Assembly (NCBI RefSeq): GCF_044647545.1
Contig: NZ_CP172818.1
Direction: 5' to 3' (one strand)
Source of the DNA: Escherichia coli
GTDB lineage: Bacteria; Pseudomonadota; Gammaproteobacteria; Enterobacterales; Enterobacteriaceae
Length of the DNA: 64,000 nt
The position numbers were made by a program, and so were the translations under genes. Shown one piece after another: positions 8,353 to 17,923 of the stretch (positions within the stretch are counted from its first letter, which is position 1; each line of letters starts with the position of its first letter). The notes beneath the pieces are model-generated. The model ran no database searches and was not told the origin of the DNA. It worked only from the letters and a program-made list of their open reading frames with translations.

Positions 8353-8443
8353 GTGTTTAATTCTGCCCTATTATTCTCCGAGCCCTGTCGCAAGTGCGGC
8401 AGGGCTTTCTTTATTTGTTTTACCCATACTGAGGAGTCTGCTT

Positions 8444-9263
8444 ATGACCCGTCTGGCTTCGCGCTTTGGCGCTGCAAACCAGATACGCCGTGACCGTCCG
8501 CTGACACATGAAGAACTGATACGCCATGTACCCAGTATTTTTGGGGAAGACCGGCACATCCCGCAGTGAACGGTATGCGTACATTCCCACCATTACCGTC
8601 CTGGAAAATCTGCAGCGGGAAGGCTTTCAGCCGTTCTTCGCCTGCCAGACCCGTGTGCGCGACCCGGGCCGCCGGGGATACACAAAACACATGCTGCGTC
8701 TGCGGCGGGCCGGAGAGATAAACGGAGAACATGTCCCTGAAATTATTCTGCTCAACTCTCATGACGGTACCTCCAGCTACCAGATGCTGCCGGGTTACTT
8801 CAGGTTCGTCTGCCAGAACGGGTGCGTCTGTGGCCAGTCTCTGGGGGAAGTGCGTGTTCCACACCGGGGAAATGTAGTGGAGAAAGTTATCGAAGGGGCT
8901 TACGAGGTGGTGGGCGTGTTTGACCGGATAGAGGAGAAGCGTGATGCCATGCAGTCGCTGGTCCTGCCGCCACCGGCACGCCAGGCGCTGGCACAGGCGG
9001 CACTGACTTACCGTTATGGTGACGAACATCAGCCCGTCACCACCGCCGACATTCTGACGCCGCGACGCCGGGAGGATTACGGTAAGGACCTGTGGAGCGC
9101 ATATCAGACCATCCAGGAGAATATGCTGAAAGGCGGGATTTCCGGTCGCAGTGCCAGAGGAAAACGTATCCATACCCGGGCCATTCACAGCATTGATACC
9201 GACATTAAGCTCAATCGCGCATTGTGGGTGATGGCAGAAACACTGCTCACGCAACTGCAGTAG
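8444..9263 (+). pseudogene. yfjQ: DUF932-family protein, frameshifted near codon 41
   Basis: ATG at 8444 with GAGGAG RBS encodes MTRLASRFGAAN... for 41 codons, then TGA at 8567-8569; the remaining 245 aa continues in the +1 frame; total span 820 nt is not a multiple of 3. Confidence 0.65.
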
Positions 9264-9479
9264 ACGTTTCATGTTGCCACGTTGTTAATATCGGACACCA
9301 CCTGTCCGCATCGCTATGTGCTCGTGTGCCTCAATCCCCCGGTTATAGCTTTTAACCCCCGTTACATCTGGCTTTTGCAGAAATAAAAAATAGTTTCTGC
9401 GTTGTCCATACCCTGTCCGCCCCCCTCTTTAAAGTAATCACATCATTTTCAGTCAGTTAACTTTCCTGGAGAATCTCTC

Positions 9480-10181
9480 ATGACACAGGCAGAACGCCGC
9501 CATGACCGGCTGGCTGTCAGGCTGTCACTGATAATCAGCCGTCTGGTTGCGGGTGAAACGTTGAGCGTGCGCAAACTGGCGGCTGAGTTTGGCGTGTCAG
9601 TGCGCACGCTGCGGCGTGATTTTCGTGAACGACTGATGTATCTGGACCTGGAGTATCAGTCCGGATACTGCCGCTTACGCACTGCTGGCAGTGAGATGCA
9701 GATGGTGCCCGACGTGCTTATCTTTGCCCACCGCAGCGGGCTGGCCGGGCTTTTTCCCGGCCTTGACCGCCGTCTGGTGAATGCACTGCTGATGTGCGAT
9801 GAGTCTCCCTGCGTGATAGCACCAGCCAATCCGGTTCCTTCGCCTTCAGGAGCATTGTCTTTCTGGAGACTGATTCAGGCCATTACCGGGCGCAGGCGGG
9901 TGACGCTGATTGCAGAGGGGCGACGCTGTGAGCGCCTAGCTCCCTGCCGGTTACTCATCCACCAGCAGACCTGGTATCTGGTGGCTGAACACGAAGGGCA
10001 TATCGCCGTATTCACACTTGATGAAATCCATCTGATTCAGCCTTTGCAGGAGACTTTTCGCCGCAATGACAGTCTGTGTCGCCTGGTTGAAGACCCGGTC
10101 TTCATTCAGGCCTTACCCCATTTTCGCTTTATCCAGCATTCACTGCTTACGTTTGTTCCGGCCGACAGCCCACCGGAATAG
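9480..10181 (+). CDS. yfjR: HTH plus WYL-domain transcriptional regulator, 233 aa
   Basis: N-terminal HTH-like segment ([21 protein letters not shown]) and a WYL motif ([11 protein letters not shown]) visible in the translation. Confidence 0.85.
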
Positions 10182-10924: not shown

Positions 10925-11392
10925 ATGAAAATACGTTCACTAAGCCGGTTTGTACTGGCAAGTACAATGTTCGCCAGCTTTACAGCCTCTGCGGTCCCCG
11001 GACTCTGGCAACAGGGGTACGGTCAGGGCAATGCGGAATACAGTGTGACGGATGCCAGCGGAAAGATGTTTACCATCAACTGCACGGGAAATCCGGACCA
11101 GAACGGTATTTACCAGCACTCGGTTTTTCTGATCCTCGCCGGGGATAAAACGGTCAGCTCGCATGATGACAGTACCGGCATCACAGTGGTGATGGACCAT
11201 AAGCAATATGCCATTCCCTCAACCCTTGGCTGGCGTAACGGAGATAATGCCTGGTTCAGCTTCATCATGGATATCCGTAAGGCCCGGCAGTTCGACGTCT
11301 ACGTCAATGACCAGAAAGTTGGATCGTTTAACCCTGATGTTCGGAATGCACAAAAGGTCCTGCCAACATTAGCGGACTGCACTAACGACTGA
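10925..11392 (+). CDS. yfjT: Secreted/periplasmic protein, 155 aa
   Basis: Intact ORF with N-terminal signal peptide; RBS GGAGA upstream. Confidence 0.8.
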   Translation: MKIRSLSRFVLASTMFASFTASAVPGLWQQGYGQGNAEYSVTDASGKMFTINCTGNPDQNGIYQHSVFLILAGDKTVSSHDDSTGITVVMDHKQYAIPSTLGWRNGDNAWFSFIMDIRKARQFDVYVNDQKVGSFNPDVRNAQKVLPTLADCTND

Positions 11393-11787
11393 CGGCTGCG
11401 CCTTCCCTACCATAACAACCCTGATTGCCTCCGGCGGTCGGGGGTTTCTTTTTTCTCCTTAATCTCCAGAGGTAGGCCACGTACTTTCGAACGATGAGCG
11501 CAGTGGTCAGTTTTTTTCAGATATATTTATCTTTTTTTGGCTGTAAGCTCCGCTGTGAGCGCAGGCTGTGTGAAAACTCCTGATCACTTCTTGGTCTAAG
11601 CGATGGTTTCATATGATCAACCATTCTTGATAAACCCATGCGACGAACTGACTTTTTCATTAAAATTAGAAATATACGAATGAATACTGCGGATACCGAC
11701 ATGGCCAATCACATTCAAGGACAAGGCAGGCACCAGGTGACATTACTCCCTGATGCACTGGATGATTTTGTCACTGAAGATAACTTA

Positions 11788-11931
11788 AGTAAGTTTAATC
11801 AGTTCATCACGGGTCGGTGGCATATCGAGATAATTAATTATTGTCGGTTCGTTGCCGTTGTTATGAAGCATCTCCAGCGTGTTGCGTGAGGTGCCACAGG
11901 CCGGGTTGTGATAGATGGTAATGTTGCTCAT
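11788..11931 (-). pseudogene. Arsenate reductase ArsC N-terminal fragment (47 codons)
   Basis: Reverse-strand translation MSNITIYHNPACGTSRNTLEM... matches the ArsC N-terminus and then hits a premature stop. Confidence 0.7.
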
Positions 11932-11943
11932 ATCAGTATCTAA

Positions 11944-12935
11944 TTACAAAGTGACAGAGAGCCGCCACGCCAGCGCGGCCAGAGTGACAAACAGCACCGG
12001 CACAGTCATGACAATGCCGGTACGGAAGTAATATCCCCAAGTGATTGTCATATTTTTCTGGGCAAGCACATGCAGCCACAGCAGAGTTGCCAGACTGCCA
12101 ATCGGGGTGATTTTCGGGCCTAAATCACAGCCAATCACATTGGCATAAATCATTGCCTCTTTGACGACGCCAGTCGCCGTACTCCCGTCAATCGACAGCG
12201 CACCAATCAGCACCGTCGGCATATTGTTCATCACTGATGAGAGAAATGCCGTCAAGAAGCCGGTGCCGAACGTCGCTGCCCATAACCCCTTGTCTGCCAG
12301 CAGATTCAGCACGCCAGACAGGTACTCCGTGAACCCTGCATTGCGCAGGCCATAGACCACGATGTACATGCCCAGTGAGAAAATAACGATCTGCCATGGC
12401 GCACCGCGCAGGACTTTTCCGGTGTTGATCGAATGACCTCTTTTCGCCACCACAAACAGCACTGCTGCGCCAGCGGCCGCTATCGCACTGACCAGGATTC
12501 CCTGCGGCTCCAGAAAGAAGAAACCGACAAGCAGCAATAACAGGACAATCCAGCCCGCCCTGAAGGTTGCCAGATCCTTGATCGCACTGGCAGGCGTCTT
12601 CAGCAGCGAAACTTAATACGTTGCCGGAATAACTCTGCGAAAGAAGAGATACAGCATAATCAGCGTGGCCGCAATCGCTGCCGCATCCACGGAGATCATA
12701 ACGGAGGCGTACTGCGCAAAGCTCAGACCGAAGAAGTCCGCCGAGACGATATTCACCAGGTTAGAAACAATGAGCGGCAGGCTGGCCGTATCTGCAATAA
12801 ATCCTGCAGCCATGACAAAGGCCAGTGTCGTGCCCTGGCTGAACCCAGTGCGATCAGCATCGCAATCACAATCGGCGTCAGGATCAGCGCGGCGCCGTCA
12901 TTGGCAAACAACGCATCAACAGCGGCACCGAGCAA
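11944..12935 (-). pseudogene. Arsenite efflux pump ArsB, N-terminally truncated and frameshifted
   Basis: Three reverse-strand ORF fragments (197, 66 and 60 aa) in different frames, all ArsB-like membrane sequence; the N-terminal roughly 100 aa is missing where AT-rich DNA begins. Confidence 0.8.
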
Positions 12936-13094
12936 GACTTTCCAGGTGAACAGCGCTCTAGGTAGGAACTTTGTCGTTGATAGAGTCTTCAGCCATCAAC
13001 ACTGTATCGAGTAATGAAATTGGTTGCTAGAAAGTCGATGATTTGTTGCGTATGATTAAAAATCAACCTTAAAGGCTTTATACATGGATTTGCT

Positions 13095-14798
13095 ATGGCT
13101 TTTGTATCAGAAAGAGAAATTGTAAGAAAGATATTTAGCAAAAAAATTGACTTTACGATCTTGGCATTTTTCTATATTTCCTCTATTTTTTTTCTTCTTT
13201 GTAGTGGCGTTCTCTTTCAATATTTTACCGCTGCCTTCACAAAAGGTAATTGTTATGAATGCTCAATGAAACTTGATTACATAAAACAATTTTATTTTTC
13301 ACTGGAAACCGCATGGTACCTCATATCTGCTGTTGCAGTATTTATTGCATCTGTTTTTATACAGCATAGAATTAAAGCTTATTTAACATTATTAGCTATT
13401 ACATGGATTGTACTAACAATAACAGATGTGGCGTTAATACACGCCTTAGACAATATAGCCATGAATAATATTTTGTTAAATATACTATATAATCTTTTTG
13501 GGGCGATTTTATTGTCACTGTTTATGTGTTTATCAAATTCCCTCCTTTTCCACCTTAATAAGATAAAACATATTCCAATGATTTTATCGGCAATGATTCC
13601 ATTAGTTTCCGCAATAATAATAGCCATACTCATAACCGCTGTTATATATTTATTGTTTGCCCGGCAGGCGGTAGAGATTGAGATGGATATATCTGAAGGT
13701 TCAGACATCGCATATGTAGGTGTAAAAGATAATGAGGAATCATTTGGGTTTTTAAATGATAAAAAAACAGACACACCAACGTATCTGGATGTAATCAAAA
13801 ATGGTAGTTTGATATATAATGATACACAGGGTTTAAGTGGTGCTGATATTTATATTGTCTCCGGTTGTTATGCCCTTCCAGATTTACTTCGCAATGTACC
13901 GCTTGATGCTAAAAAATCTTTTCTGAATGTAAAAAAGCTAGAAATCACACAGAAACTTCCAATGATGGGGTTCATACAAGGTGAATCCGCTGATGTGATG
14001 CCTAAAGCAGCATCCAGGTTAAGTTTGAGCAAGCAAGATGATAAATTTATGCTAGCCTCAAGTGTTACTGACTCTCAAATAAAATTTAAATCAAACAATG
14101 CACAATTGATGGTTGCTTTCGCATTTATGCCAATAACAACGAATGGTATTTTACATGATTATACATACGATATAATAATAAATGATAAAAAATATAAAAT
14201 TGAAAATCATGTTGCACCTCTATCTAGGCTTGATAAAAATAAGAAGATGAAGTGTGAATACCAGCAAATATCGGATTTAACAAATACGTATAACATTAAT
14301 GCAAATTACTTAACGGGTTTTTTACTTGTCCTAAAACCAGATGATATTATTAATTACAACAATAGCCCTTCCGTACTACTCAAGACTGATTTTGCGTTCT
14401 ATAAAAAAACATACCAGAAGCTTGATAAAATATATGATGACATAAGCAATGGAAAATTATCTTCACTGAGAGCAACAGGTATCTCCCAGTTTAGTATCAA
14501 CGGGAAACATTTGTCGTTAAGGCCAGAATCGGAGATTATTATTTCTGAAGGGAGTTTGTATGGACTAGTTAATAAAAGCAAAAAAATCAAAATATATGGC
14601 ACAGCAGATCTTGTTTTTGTTGATAACAAGATAATGAACCTTCGTAAAATAACTTATTTGCAATCTAAGCTAGAAATTTTTGGTTCTTCTATTATGGATA
14701 TATTAAAGTATATATTTGGTTTAGGTCTGCTAGCAATTTCTATAAAATTCATTCATTCTTACTTTAAGAATGATGTGAATGAAAATTTATTCTTGTAA
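13095..14798 (+). CDS. yfjW: AT-rich inner-membrane protein, 567 aa, function unknown
   Basis: 567-aa ORF; strongly hydrophobic N-terminal about 190 aa followed by a hydrophilic Asn/Lys-rich domain; very low GC. Confidence 0.75.
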   Translation: MAFVSEREIVRKIFSKKIDFTILAFFYISSIFFLLCSGVLFQYFTAAFTKGNCYECSMKLDYIKQFYFSLETAWYLISAVAVFIASVFIQHRIKAYLTLLAITWIVLTITDVALIHALDNIAMNNILLNILYNLFGAILLSLFMCLSNSLLFHLNKIKHIPMILSAMIPLVSAIIIAILITAVIYLLFARQAVEIEMDISEGSDIAYVGVKDNEESFGFLNDKKTDTPTYLDVIKNGSLIYNDTQGLSGADIYIVSGCYALPDLLRNVPLDAKKSFLNVKKLEITQKLPMMGFIQGESADVMPKAASRLSLSKQDDKFMLASSVTDSQIKFKSNNAQLMVAFAFMPITTNGILHDYTYDIIINDKKYKIENHVAPLSRLDKNKKMKCEYQQISDLTNTYNINANYLTGFLLVLKPDDIINYNNSPSVLLKTDFAFYKKTYQKLDKIYDDISNGKLSSLRATGISQFSINGKHLSLRPESEIIISEGSLYGLVNKSKKIKIYGTADLVFVDNKIMNLRKITYLQSKLEIFGSSIMDILKYIFGLGLLAISIKFIHSYFKNDVNENLFL

Positions 14799-15268
14799 CG
14801 CATTTGGCTCCAATTGGAGCCTTTTTATGACTATTTATTAAAATATCCTAAGTTAAGCCTGTTTTTAAAGCAGGCTTGAGCGTGAAGCGGACACTCATAC
14901 CTGCTTTAAAGTGGCGTTTTTGTCGTTACCCATACCTATATTTTCTGTTGTTTAACTGCCAGAACTGAGCGGTTGAAAAGCCAGAAATATGCCGAGCCAG
15001 CGGCATGGAAGCGCCAGCAGCTGTTGAATGGAGTACTGTAGGCAAATGGTGCCGTAACCGGCTTTCGTACTGAAAGGTTCTGTCTATCCCATCCCTTCTC
15101 TTGTATCTAACATTTAGTTGTGAATAGCTACTGTAAATGCCCCTACAAAATGAACCATTATTTTTAGAGGGCGTCTGGCACTCCAACTTCCGCTTTTGGC
15201 ACAGAACGGCCTATCAGCAATATAAAAGCATTCAGATATATATCATTTCTACAAACATACCCGATTAA

Positions 15269-15300
15269 CGGCAGAATCTCAGGATTCTGCCGCTTTTTTA
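15269..15300 (+). terminator. Terminator-like hairpin, second copy of the yfjP-type leader
   Basis: CGGCAGAATC...GATTCTGCCG stem plus T-run; flanks align with 7399-7492. Confidence 0.45.
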
Positions 15301-15321
15301 TTATTTTTCAGGGGAGTAGTA

Positions 15322-15695
15322 ATGAGCAACTCTGAAGGTTGGTAGTCATTTTAGCAAACGCTTTCTGGTCTGCCGCAGTGGGCATCGGCTGATTGCGTAG
15401 CAGGGCCACTGGTATCTGCCGGTATCACCGACATTAACATTGAAGACGACCAGGGCATTCACGTCCGCCTGATAGTTCGTGATGCCGAAGGTCGGATGGT
15501 TGGCGGGCATGGAACTTTGAACCGGACGCCGGTGAAGGTTTTAACCGCTATATCCACAGGTCAGGCATCCGCACCGACACCTTCCCCCGCTGACTCCGAA
15601 TCATTTACCAGCAACATTTCACCTTCCCAAACGCGCTTTATTACCTCATACGCCAGCCATCGCCGCTGGCGTTTTTTATTCACGGAGACATACCC
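15322..15695 (+). pseudogene. Degenerate remnant beginning with a yfjP-like N-terminus
   Basis: ATG after the duplicated leader gives MSNSEGW then stop; downstream frames retain ...QTLSGLPQW..., resembling YfjP residues 12-20, but no intact ORF. Confidence 0.4.
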
Positions 15696-16154
15696 ATGAC
15701 AACACAGACACAGTACGACCTCGTACCCGCTAACGGATCCGAATTTGAGTTGAGCGTAACGCAGGTACCCGATGAACAGCATATCCGCTTCTGGCCGCAG
15801 CACTTTGGCACCATCCCGCAGTGGATAACGCTGGAACCGCGCATTTTCGCCTGGATGGACCGCTTCTGTGATGAGTACTGCGGGGGTATCTGGTCCTTTT
15901 ACACGCTCAGCAATGGCGGAGCGTTTATGGCTCCTGATGCTGACGGTGACGATAAATGGCATTTGCTCAACGGCATGAATGGCAATGGTGCGGAAATGAG
16001 CGCGGAAGCCGCAGGTATCGCTGTCTGCCTGATTGAATATAGCCATCACGCCTGCCTCACCGAATGCGATGCCATGACGGAGCACTATTACCGCCTGCGG
16101 GATTACGCTCTGCAGCACCCTGAATCCAGCGCCATTATGCGCATTATTGATTAA
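15696..16154 (+). CDS. yfjX: Antirestriction protein (ArdB/KlcA-like), 152 aa
   Basis: 152-aa ORF recognised as YfjX-family antirestriction protein. Confidence 0.85.
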   Translation: MTTQTQYDLVPANGSEFELSVTQVPDEQHIRFWPQHFGTIPQWITLEPRIFAWMDRFCDEYCGGIWSFYTLSNGGAFMAPDADGDDKWHLLNGMNGNGAEMSAEAAGIAVCLIEYSHHACLTECDAMTEHYYRLRDYALQHPESSAIMRIID

Positions 16155-16162
16155 GGATACTC

Positions 16163-16645
16163 ATGATGGAACAGTCACTCATCCCACAGACACCGGTACT
16201 TCCACTGACCGCACAACGCACGGTAAAACGCGCCTTAACGCTGCTTGACCGACACCTGCGCGAAACAGGCGTGGCATTCACCTCCACTCAGGCTGCTCGT
16301 GACTGGCTGAAGCTGAAAATGGCGGGGCTGGAGCGTGAAGAATTTATGATGCTGTATCTGAACCAGCAGAACCAGTTGATTGCCCACGAAACCCTGTTTG
16401 CCGGTTCTATTAGCAGTACCGAGGTACATCCCCGTGAGGTGGTCAAACGCGCCCTGTATTTCAATGCAGCAGCAGTGATACTGGCGCATAACCACCCCTC
16501 CGGCGACACTACTCCCAGCCAGGCAGATAAGACTATAACGCAGCGTCTGGTGCAGGCGCTTCAGCTCGTTGATATCCGTGTCCCTGACCATCTGATTGTT
16601 GGTGGCAGGCAAATCTATTCGTTCGCAGAACACGGTCTGCTTTGA
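16163..16645 (+). CDS. yfjY: RadC-like JAB-domain protein, 160 aa
   Basis: JAB/MPN metal-binding motif HNHPSGD visible in the translation. Confidence 0.85.
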   Translation: MMEQSLIPQTPVLPLTAQRTVKRALTLLDRHLRETGVAFTSTQAARDWLKLKMAGLEREEFMMLYLNQQNQLIAHETLFAGSISSTEVHPREVVKRALYFNAAAVILAHNHPSGDTTPSQADKTITQRLVQALQLVDIRVPDHLIVGGRQIYSFAEHGLL

Positions 16646-16854
16646 GGTATTACATGAGAATTATCAGTAAACGCCGGGCAATGACGATATACCGCCAGCA
16701 TCCTGAGTCCCGAATCTTTCGCTACTGCACCGGAAAATATCAGTGGCACGGTAGCGTCTGTCATTACACCGGCAGGGATGTTCCGGATATCACAGGAGTC
16801 CTGGCTGTGTACGCCGAACGCCGCAGGACCGCAGCGGACCGTATGCTTGACTGA
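16642..16854 (+). CDS. ypjJ: DUF987 small protein
   Basis: Small ORF overlapping the yfjY stop by 4 bp; conserved position ahead of the toxin-antitoxin pair; exact start uncertain. Confidence 0.65.
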   Translation: MRYYMRIISKRRAMTIYRQHPESRIFRYCTGKYQWHGSVCHYTGRDVPDITGVLAVYAERRRTAADRMLD

Positions 16855-16891
16855 TGAGTATCACCCTGAACTGACAATAAAGAGGTTATGA

Positions 16892-17209
16892 ATGAGCAAC
16901 ACCACATGGGGCCTGCAGCGAGATATCACGCCGCGCCTGGGAGCACGTCTGGTGCAGGAGGGCAACCAGCTGCACTATCTGGCTGACCGGGCCAGTATCA
17001 CCGGTAAGTTTAGTGACGCCGAATGTCCTAAGCTGGATGTGGTATTTCCACATTTTATCAGCCAGATAGAGTCGATGCTGACCACTGGTGAACTGAATCC
17101 CCGCCATGCCCAATGCGTCACCCTGTACCACAACGGTTTTACCTGCGAAGCCGATACTCTTGGTAGTTGCGGCTACGTATACATCGCTGTTTACCCCACT
17201 CAACGCTAA
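16892..17209 (+). CDS. yfjZ: CbeA-family type IV antitoxin, 105 aa
   Basis: 105-aa ORF recognised as YfjZ/CbeA family; immediately upstream of the cognate toxin. Confidence 0.85.
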
Positions 17210-17229
17210 CTAATTTCACGAGAGCAAGC

Positions 17230-17559
17230 ATGAACACTCTACCTGCTACAATTTCGCAGGCGGCGAAGCCCTGCCTGTCGCCAGTGGCTGTCTGGCAAAT
17301 GCTACTGACACGCCTGCTGGAACAACACTATGGCCTGACACTGAACGACACGCCGTTCAGTGATGAAACTGTTATTAAGGAACATATCGATGCTGGTATC
17401 ACTCTGGCCGATGCAGTCAATTTTCTGGTGGAAAAGTACGAACTGGTACGTATCGATCACAGAGGATTTTCGTGGCAACAACAGTCTCCATATATTTCCG
17501 TAGTAGATATTCTGCGAGCAAGGCGCTCTACCGGCTTGCTAAAAACTAATGTGAAATAA
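17230..17559 (+). CDS. ypjF: CbtA-family type IV toxin, 109 aa
   Basis: ATG at 17230 ([10 protein letters not shown]...); the listed ORF has an N-terminal extension. Confidence 0.85.
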
Positions 17560-17923
17560 ACGCTTAAATACAGAGCAGACTGAAGGAAAGCAAAATGCTA
17601 ATCTCATAGACGAAGAGACTCCCGCTGTAACCTCCCCTCCCCCGAAAAAACCTGACATTTTCTTTTAGGACCAACAATGGGACCAAAATGAAAATTGAAC
17701 TGAAGATTACAATCAATTTAACAACAAGTTACACAACCAATTCAACTCCCGCCAGCTCCACCAATCATGATTGGACGGTGTAAGGACAACACCAATAAAA
17801 ACAGGAAGTTAGCAGTCTCAGCAGGACACCGACCAGACGGTGAGGAGACAAAAAAGGATACGCAAAGGAGCCGCGGCCCCTGGTGATATGAAAGCCCACA
17901 GATGTGGGCTTTTTCGTTGATGG

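Follow-up and report, generated by a model that had tools for sequence, protein, structure and literature searches.

YfjW of Escherichia coli belongs to a rare family of predicted inner-membrane proteins carried by mobile elements, with a possible role in exclusion at the cell envelope

The accessory genes old, tin and PARIS encode cytoplasmic nucleases, ATPases or proteins of the single-stranded DNA-binding type. In phage P2, the interval from the portal gene Q to the replication gene A is a defence hotspot that holds old and tin (PMC9122126), and the orf30 slot between genes S and V is one of three loci with horizontally acquired genes (PMC3091744). In the case of SieA from phage P22, an inner-membrane protein mediating superinfection exclusion, a block of injection has been shown. 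Here, these systems are compared with yfjW, a named y-gene of Escherichia coli K-12 that is already known but without an assigned function. The gene was studied in a 64,000-nucleotide stretch of the E. coli contig NZ_CP172818.1 (assembly GCF_044647545.1), the whole of which is referred to as the window and supplies all positions not otherwise attributed. An open reading frame (ORF) at 13095-14798 on the + strand encodes 567 residues that are 100% identical to WP_000896263.1 of K-12 strains.

YfjW and SieA are alike in that both are encoded by single genes that are accessory cargo of mobile elements (yfjW itself is part of the CP4-57 island in the K-12 annotation), in that both are integral inner-membrane proteins, as a prediction in the case of YfjW, and in that very divergent alleles occur in both families, those of YfjW found in one slot being 17-21% identical. 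By contrast, SieA has ~162 residues, three transmembrane (TM) helices and no large periplasmic domain, whereas YfjW has 567 residues, with five plus one predicted TM helices and a predicted β-domain of 340 residues; the action of SieA on injection is established, whereas YfjW is a candidate for such an action. No sequence or fold homology of YfjW to SieA, Imm or other Sie proteins was found with PHROG, Pfam or NCBIfam. With old, tin, fun(Z) and PARIS, the YfjW family shares loci, relatives being present in both the Q–A hotspot and the S–V (orf30) slot, and a composition that is AT-rich relative to the phage backbone (GC content 0.33 vs 0.53-0.60, the values for the S–V insert of E. coli A15); one copy adjoins the genes for AriA/AriB. 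YfjW differs from this cargo in being a predicted membrane protein with no recognised enzymatic domain and no PADLOC homology. The soluble domain of YfjW has been described as a β-taco like those of the Lpt and AsmA proteins (PMC10862712), with which it does share a predicted membrane-anchored, β-rich periplasmic domain; there is, however, no sequence relationship, and similarity of structure to LptA/LptC/LptF-G or to the β-jellyroll of TamB/AsmA, on which membership would depend, was not found.

Among hypotheses for its function, the one best supported by genomic context is the exclusion or abortive-infection role that an earlier note on this stretch, made from the letters alone, had guessed at. 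Our tentative proposal, which comes from the analysis as a whole, is that YfjW may be an envelope-level exclusion or defence factor that is silenced by H-NS and StpA in K-12. A role in conflict at the envelope is suggested by the slots that the family shares with old, tin and PARIS, by its spread over phages, islands and plasmids, and by the fast turnover of its alleles. Exclusion is a specific lead that is cheap to test and that draws its support entirely from context. What is added here to the named gene is the definition of its family, a topology, candidate functional residues, the finding of no solved structural relative, and recurrence in P2 and other prophage slots.

All YfjW-family copies that could be placed lie in mobile or variable DNA. 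In a P2-like prophage of Klebsiella pneumoniae (locus L010), a relative is present between Q and A, directly after AriA/AriB; PARIS was recognised at L010 5484-7650 (AriA, E 7e-41; AriB, E 2e-5), with a gap of 350 nt to the downstream YfjW-like gene. In a P2-like prophage of E. coli A15, a 597-residue member (WP_201489199.1; hhalign probability 100, E 8e-67) occupies the AT-rich insert between S and V. Another K. pneumoniae copy, with 52% identity to YfjW, lies between a host gene and a lambdoid prophage integrase, in two different mosaic prophages. No tRNA marking an attachment site was found beside the Klebsiella or P2 copies.

In two mobilisable islands, L020 and L014 (the latter from Yersinia), a family member is located directly downstream of mobA, with TraD-like genes nearby (the mobA slots being at L014 6396-9800 and L020 6039-9704). 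The MobA proteins of these islands are 74% identical and a downstream 184-residue protein 72%, whereas the YfjW alleles are only 17-21% identical. A tyrosine recombinase of ~328 residues adjoins the family gene in Mangrovibacter, on an IncF plasmid of Enterobacter kobei, on an IncFII plasmid of Salmonella and in Phytobacter; its copies are 70-77% identical, whereas the associated YfjW alleles are only 32-47% identical to each other. The alleles of the YfjW family have hence turned over faster than the backbone genes beside them, i.e. those for MobA and the linked recombinase. It may be that the recombinase and the YfjW-family gene constitute a two-gene mobile module. The recombinase genes, at L011 9865-10851, L006 10646-11635, L018 6688-7671 and L008 6979-7745, vary in orientation, and the Phytobacter copy (L008) is degenerate. 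Two H-NS-like proteins are encoded in the L020 island, at 461-862 and 17162-17404.

Other defence genes occur in the vicinity of some relatives. A pair of the McrBC type was assigned by Pfam (McrBC/McrB domains), only one of the two also matching type II restriction-enzyme models in PADLOC, and a CBASS-like E1-E2-JAB protein (PADLOC) stands beside a patatin-domain protein (Pfam, with no PADLOC match). Genes of the ABC-3C, RES and toxin-antitoxin types are also among the neighbours, and the CP4-57 surroundings of yfjW itself include AbpAB, RnlAB and a GmrSD fragment. PADLOC gave no match for ten further neighbour proteins from five loci. The Mesorhizobium relative is embedded in an apparent defence island (L017 2730-7927 and 9907-16994), where its neighbours include a CHAT protease, two radical-SAM proteins, a patatin-domain protein and a CBASS-like E1-E2-JAB fusion, along with further proteins having weak PD-T4-5 and PDC-M34B matches. 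A Pseudomonas relative (L009 9799-13159) adjoins a dsbC/thioredoxin-fold/dsbD cluster; this could be a coincidence or could be tied to the conserved periplasmic Cys pair described below. The family is decaying on plasmids, to judge from a Pantoea copy with 29% identity that is split into two ORFs (L007 8935-10505), and from an unannotated E. kobei copy with 87% identity that is without its first ~70 codons (L006 9001-10491).

With respect to mechanism, YfjW would be expressed from a resident mobile element and, at the inner membrane and in the periplasm, would counter phages or rival elements as they arrive. Most probably it would obstruct periplasm-spanning genome delivery, i.e. bring about a form of superinfection exclusion like that of P22 SieA, since a protein of the inner membrane whose periplasmic domain is large would be best placed to interfere at this step, as does the smaller SieA (PMC10883804). 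The β-domain might contact the injection machinery, with the TM bundle serving as an anchor or as an ion- or lipid-binding site; in K-12 the gene is a CP4-57 passenger that H-NS and StpA keep silent. A more elaborate version, which we consider doubtful, is that the family represents a new single-protein, envelope-resident system directed against phages or other elements, in which the disulfide-stapled periplasmic domain, matching no solved structure and tethered to the inner membrane at its two ends, would recognise the delivery apparatus, the five-helix bundle with its invariant Asp/Asn site in the membrane would block translocation or couple this recognition to ion flux, and highly divergent alleles would be exchanged by temperate phages, mobilisable islands and plasmids in their cargo slots.

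The predicted architecture of YfjW is compatible with residence in the envelope. Kyte-Doolittle hydropathy windows and the helices of an AlphaFold2 (AF2) model agree on TM helices at residues ~17-46, 71-87, 92-118, 123-157 and 162-188, and on a sixth at 533-556, so that the polytopic N-terminal region reported in the earlier note is borne out as five helices within residues 17-188. The same note had described a large Asn/Lys-rich soluble domain; the domain is large and rich in Lys (10.7%), but its Asn content is moderate (7.2%), and, since there is a sixth TM helix at residues 532-556 that had been overlooked, it is a loop linking TM5 and TM6 rather than a free C-terminal domain. Three segments can be distinguished, all encoded on the + strand: residues 1-188, comprising the cytoplasmic N terminus and the five-helix bundle (13095-13658; hydropathy, AF2, charge, conservation and a check of coordinates by translation); residues 189-531, a predicted periplasmic and almost all-β domain (13659-14687); and residues 532-567, which form the sixth TM helix and end in a short cytoplasmic tail (14688-14798). 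The mean net charge over 36 relatives is +3.1 for the N terminus, +1.75 for loop 2 and +1.67 for loop 4, and is negative in loops 1 and 3 and in the segment following TM5. This positive-inside pattern leads to the prediction that the N terminus is inside and that the 340-residue domain is periplasmic; YfjW is thus predicted to be an inner-membrane protein with a cytoplasmic N terminus and a periplasmic domain anchored at both ends.

Conservation in the family falls into two classes. D111, G136, C258, C387 and G502 are invariant across 36 full-length members, and Q42, Y54, N133, F217, G453 and N515 are near-invariant. By column conservation, the conserved polar residues of the TM region (within 13095-13658) are Q42, Y54, D111 (13425-13427) and N133, with G136 also conserved; D111 is inside TM3 and N133 inside TM4, and each of the four polar residues is placed either in periplasmic loop 1 or in that half of the helical bundle which faces the periplasm. 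A conserved polar site near the outer (periplasmic) leaflet of the membrane is predicted on this basis. The conserved positions of the β-domain are Gly, Cys and Phe, i.e. structural residues. They include the invariant pair C258 (13866-13868) and C387 (14253-14255); the soluble domain has exactly two Cys residues in 34 of the 36 relatives and four in the other two, and C258–C387 is probably one invariant structural disulfide in the periplasm. The domain also holds a SFGFLNDK-T-TPT motif (13734-13781). In predicted periplasmic loop 1, a CYEC (CxxC) motif (13251-13262) is, from the alignment, confined to the enterobacterial clade; it is replaced by S-I-Y-x-S-x-Y in distant relatives, and the AF2 predicted local distance difference test (pLDDT) score there is below 50.

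The β-domain was modelled from a 26-sequence alignment with a pLDDT of 89.6 and a predicted template-modelling score (pTM) of 0.84; it is almost all β, several of the strands being 13-17 residues long. The model matches no solved structure. A Foldseek search against AFDB50 returned only uncharacterised members of the family itself, with template-modelling scores of ~0.7, from Xenorhabdus, Vibrio, Rhizobium, Pandoraea, Glaciimonas and E. coli, and a sequence-profile search of the PDB gave nothing below E 0.4. As the AFDB50 search returned family members alone, the labels β-taco, 'ResB-like' and 'DUF1761' were rejected as grounds for membership. The latter two appear in databases, some AFDB relatives being labelled 'ResB-like domain-containing' and the NCBI names for the Klebsiella and Salmonella orthologues being 'DUF1761 domain-containing'. 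ResB/CcsB and DUF1761 proteins do bear a crude likeness to YfjW, with TM helices at the N terminus, then a large extracytoplasmic domain, and a further TM helix at the C terminus. However, ResB/CcsB (PF05140) gave no match in Pfam scans of YfjW or 36 relatives at E<=0.1, and DUF1761 (PF08570) had an i-Evalue of 3.1 on YfjW, with one of the 36 relatives reaching 1e-3 and five reaching 0.1. All of the weak DUF1761 matches are inside the TM region, and the signal is probably hydrophobic-composition noise.

The family, of which YfjW is the named member, is very rare and is not represented in any of the libraries searched. Among 5.8 billion protein clusters, 17 were found to match, most members being full length, with named members from Mangrovibacter, Serratia, Klebsiella, Salmonella and Enterobacter at 44-93% identity to YfjW. 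Close relatives were present in two of 100,044 species-representative genomes (a Serratia sp. at 97% and Raoultella at 53%). When 1.84 billion representatives were searched exhaustively with a profile, 39 matched at E<=1e-3, ~25 of which are full-length proteins of 540-625 residues, with named members from Phytobacter, Yersinia, Klebsiella, Pseudomonas, Xanthomonas and Mesorhizobium; the A2 alignment, used as the query of a second protein search of the word-indexed type, gave no further members. In that alignment the distant members are 12-18% identical to YfjW, and the architecture, the Cys pair and the polar TM residues are kept down to ~15% identity across Gamma-, Beta- and Alphaproteobacteria. 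The description of the protein as an orphan in the earlier note is therefore nearly correct, but a rare family of relatives does exist; a housekeeping function, for which a homology search had been suggested as a check, was not assigned by Pfam, NCBIfam, PHROGs, PADLOC or PDB sequences.

By sequence comparison, yfjW is a real and intact gene under purifying selection. The ratio of nonsynonymous to synonymous substitution rates (dN/dS) relative to the Serratia, Mangrovibacter and Klebsiella orthologues is 0.16, 0.12 and 0.14, respectively, and in full-length orthologues of 44-97% identity the reading frame is kept and the start Met is conserved. The low GC content noted from the sequence was confirmed, being 0.29-0.36 along the gene vs 0.50-0.56 on either side; it is 0.313 for the gene as a whole (0.275 at third codon positions), 0.49 for the whole window and 0.30-0.32 for the orthologues in each host examined. 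Carriage within the species is restricted to 362 of 5,426 complete E. coli genomes, every copy having at least 99% identity, and the positive strains in sampled rows are mostly K-12 or derivatives.

The gene is also a horizontally mobile cargo gene ('moron'), and is monocistronic in that it has its own terminator 8 nt past the stop codon and a weak σ70-like match upstream. The terminator (14806-14829, +), found by a terminator scan and by alignment, consists of a perfect hairpin GGCTCCAATTGGAGCC followed by a T run, and is present in all four aligned cassette copies. The promoter match (13028-13056, +; TAGAAA, a 17-nt spacer and TATGAT, ~40 nt 5' of the ATG) comes from a consensus scan that gave 15 sites vs 10.7 expected in shuffles, and alone is not significant.

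In previous work, yfjW has been used as a model H-NS target, and in one preprint is the chromosomal locus most heavily bound by H-NS; it is silent both in the wild type and in a Δhns strain and rises ~50-fold in a Δhns ΔstpA strain (PMC12460168). It has also been deleted without comment, serving merely as a linked marker (PMC12977641). Silencing by H-NS/StpA would account for the lack of a laboratory phenotype of yfjW in K-12, and could explain why the gene is missing from the hits of a phage-resistance screen.

A number of points weigh against an exclusion or defence role. We found in the literature no functional study of yfjW and no reported phenotype; a genome-wide E. coli phage-resistance screen did not report it as a hit, its supplements giving yfjW low scores only, and the machine-learning screen SLiPP placed YfjW among its ten top-scoring predicted E. 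coli lipid binders (PMC10862712). Known exclusion proteins, e.g. SieA with its ~162 residues and three TM helices, are far smaller (PMC10883804). The conserved polar residues are located in the membrane domain and not in the periplasmic one, a distribution that would fit an enzyme, a channel or a lipid site equally well. No model in Pfam, NCBIfam or PHROGs matches YfjW or diverse relatives, and PADLOC-DB 2.0 has no family for YfjW at E<=1 and none for five diverse relatives at E<=0.01. A tblastn search with YfjW and the P2-prophage relative gave no copy in 50,697 phage genomes, and no relative was present in the viral contigs of IMG/VR. Finally, recognisable defence genes are near the family gene in only ~5 of ~18 contexts, and mobile elements are in any case enriched for defence genes.

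The membrane site can be accommodated by other proposals. One, which we rate as rather unlikely, is that the family handles an envelope lipid or glycolipid in lysogenic conversion: the polar site would bind or modify a lipid-linked substrate, the acyl or polyprenyl part of which would be held by the β-domain, and lipopolysaccharide, capsule or membrane composition would be altered, with phage resistance arising indirectly via a changed receptor. The position of Q42, Y54, D111 and N133 towards the periplasm is consistent with such chemistry. The ranking among predicted lipid binders and the β-taco description (PMC10862712) point in the same direction. In prophages, the integrase-adjacent slot classically holds O-antigen modification genes, e.g. 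gtrABC and oac. Similarity to GT-C, acyltransferase-3 or PAP2 proteins was, however, not found with Pfam or NCBIfam, nor were partner genes such as gtrA or gtrB found nearby, and the rarity and patchy occurrence of the family are quite unlike those of a general envelope pathway. The same residues may alternatively be viewed in terms of ion conduction, since membrane-embedded acidic residues are a hallmark of the ion-conducting stators MotB, ExbD and ZorB, and YfjW has an invariant D111 and a near-invariant N133 within TM3 and TM4, along with a conserved Q42. An abortive-infection sensor-effector can thus be envisaged, in which the periplasmic domain would sense perturbation of the envelope by a phage and the TM bundle would open or oligomerise, depolarising the membrane and killing the cell before progeny are made. 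This proposal shares its mobile-element and hotspot contexts with exclusion, transmembrane proteins in known systems are mostly regarded as suicide effectors (PMC9122126), and tight silencing by H-NS/StpA would suit a potentially toxic product. We regard a sensor-effector of this type as unlikely nonetheless: the AT content alone accounts for the silencing, the bundle has five helices only, and the single gene has no partner sensor or antitoxin.

The locations of some copies raise the question of whether the family serves the elements themselves, either in entry exclusion against related elements, i.e. inter-element competition, or as a mating-related envelope component in transfer. The position directly downstream of mobA in two mobilisable islands with TraD-like genes near, the copies on IncF-type plasmids and the dedicated tyrosine recombinase linked in four loci are all compatible with this proposal, but the family also has members in elements that do not conjugate, namely P2-like and lambdoid prophages, and Pfam and NCBIfam gave no similarity to TraS, TraT or Eex. 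The low identity of alleles that share an island slot (17-21%) could reflect specificity switching, and so is not decisive; on balance, a transfer role is distinctly improbable. Even more so is the proposal that yfjW is a functionless AT-rich passenger surviving in K-12 merely through silencing. The gene is indeed transcriptionally silent there and has no reported phenotype, it is surrounded by pseudogenes (arsB', arsC' and a DUF905 fragment), and of the copies elsewhere, that on the E. kobei plasmid lacks its 5' end and that of Pantoea is split. Yet the ORF is intact, dN/dS is 0.12-0.16 in three comparisons, and architecture, Cys pair and polar TM residues are conserved to ~15% identity in Gamma-, Beta- and Alphaproteobacteria; given the purifying selection, the relic proposal is largely refuted at the level of the family.

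Among the remaining function-unknown genes of E. coli K-12, yfjW can now be placed in a family, with a topology predicted for it, candidate residues named and a role that can be tested. If the exclusion proposal is correct, YfjW would be a structurally unprecedented membrane exclusion factor encoded by mobile elements, and would add a structurally new, single-gene envelope barrier to the phage defences, most of the catalogued ones being cytoplasmic; the P2 S–V (orf30) and integrase-adjacent slots would then hold cargo of the same kind as the Q–A hotspot, and the periplasmic domain would offer a new fold for structural study. Were it instead to handle lipids, a new kind of lysogenic-conversion function would result.

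The history of the gene in CP4-57 can be followed from its borders. The minimal mobile cassette, comprising promoter region, gene and terminator, was delimited by cross-host alignments at 12974-14844 (+). The Mangrovibacter copy (L011) is 89% identical over exactly 12974-14844, and the E. kobei plasmid copy has the same right boundary, 14844; the cassette copies part ways after ...TTATTAAAAT. To the left are two remnants on the - strand: a frameshifted arsB without ~91 N-terminal residues (11944-12959; RefSeq, ORF fragments and tblastn) and a 48-residue N-terminal fragment of arsC (11785-11931; ORF list, annotated in K-12 as a glutaredoxin-domain pseudogene). In tblastn with an ArsB query, ArsB residue ~92 falls at base 12959, and RefSeq gives the K-12 equivalent as 'missing N-terminus'. 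The cassette start is only 15 bp from this truncation point, so that the observation that yfjW begins where arsB loses its N terminus stands.

The interpretation drawn from that observation, an insertion of yfjW into a former ars locus at this site, does not, as the junction is present ready-made in Serratia sp. AKBS12. The arsC'-arsB'-yfjW block (11780-15211) is 96.5% identical over 3,433 bp to this Serratia (L012 8685-12117), in which the truncation of arsB is the same, yfjW is followed by a further 367 bp of shared sequence past the cassette, and arsC is still an ORF of 141 residues. The homology with Serratia begins at 11780, abutting a fragment of an IS1182-family transposase (11559-11784, identified by homology) that forms the left border of the imported block and is 99.6-100% identical to annotated transposases of non-K-12 E. 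coli, with 16 differences from K-12. Neither the arsB N terminus nor arsR was found anywhere in the window, including the other side of yfjW. The comparison with genomes having an intact ars operon at this locus, which had been suggested as a means of defining the insertion, found none at near identity among the 5,426 complete E. coli genomes. From the Serratia identity, the IS1182 border, the missing arsB N terminus and arsR, and the lack of an intact ars operon in these E. coli genomes, it follows that the arsC-arsB'-yfjW junction was made elsewhere and imported as a 3.4-kb piece; the block thus came pre-assembled. Simple insertion of yfjW into a resident ars operon was rejected on the grounds of the missing other half of arsB, the missing arsR and the Serratia junction. 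Membership of yfjW in an ars operon was likewise rejected, the gene being on the opposite strand with a GC content of 0.31 vs 0.53-0.56; no ars gene accompanies the cassette in Mangrovibacter, Klebsiella, Salmonella, Enterobacter and others.

Next to yfjW, no trace of the tyrosine recombinase that adjoins other family genes was found in the window or in Serratia. An Rfam scan of 11000-17000 gave no RNA family, and NCBIfam gave no match for the ORFs to the right of yfjW, at 14926-15186 and 15137-15268. A 20-nt inverted repeat (14864-14883/14891-14910), 85% complementary with a 7-nt spacer, is present past the right end of the cassette at 14844, in the 367 bp common only to the window and the Serratia copy. 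The ~2.1 kb around yfjW have 100% identity to E. coli K-12 strains. As a whole the window is a CP4-57 mosaic that was not present among the 5,426 complete E. coli genomes searched; its identity to BW25113 over 24 kb is 97.6%, with no differences in the yfjW block. The differences from BW25113 are grouped at 8400-9500, 11572-11789 and 17500-29000, with ~220 mismatches in yfjQ, 16 in the IS1182-family fragment, and others in the ypjA region.

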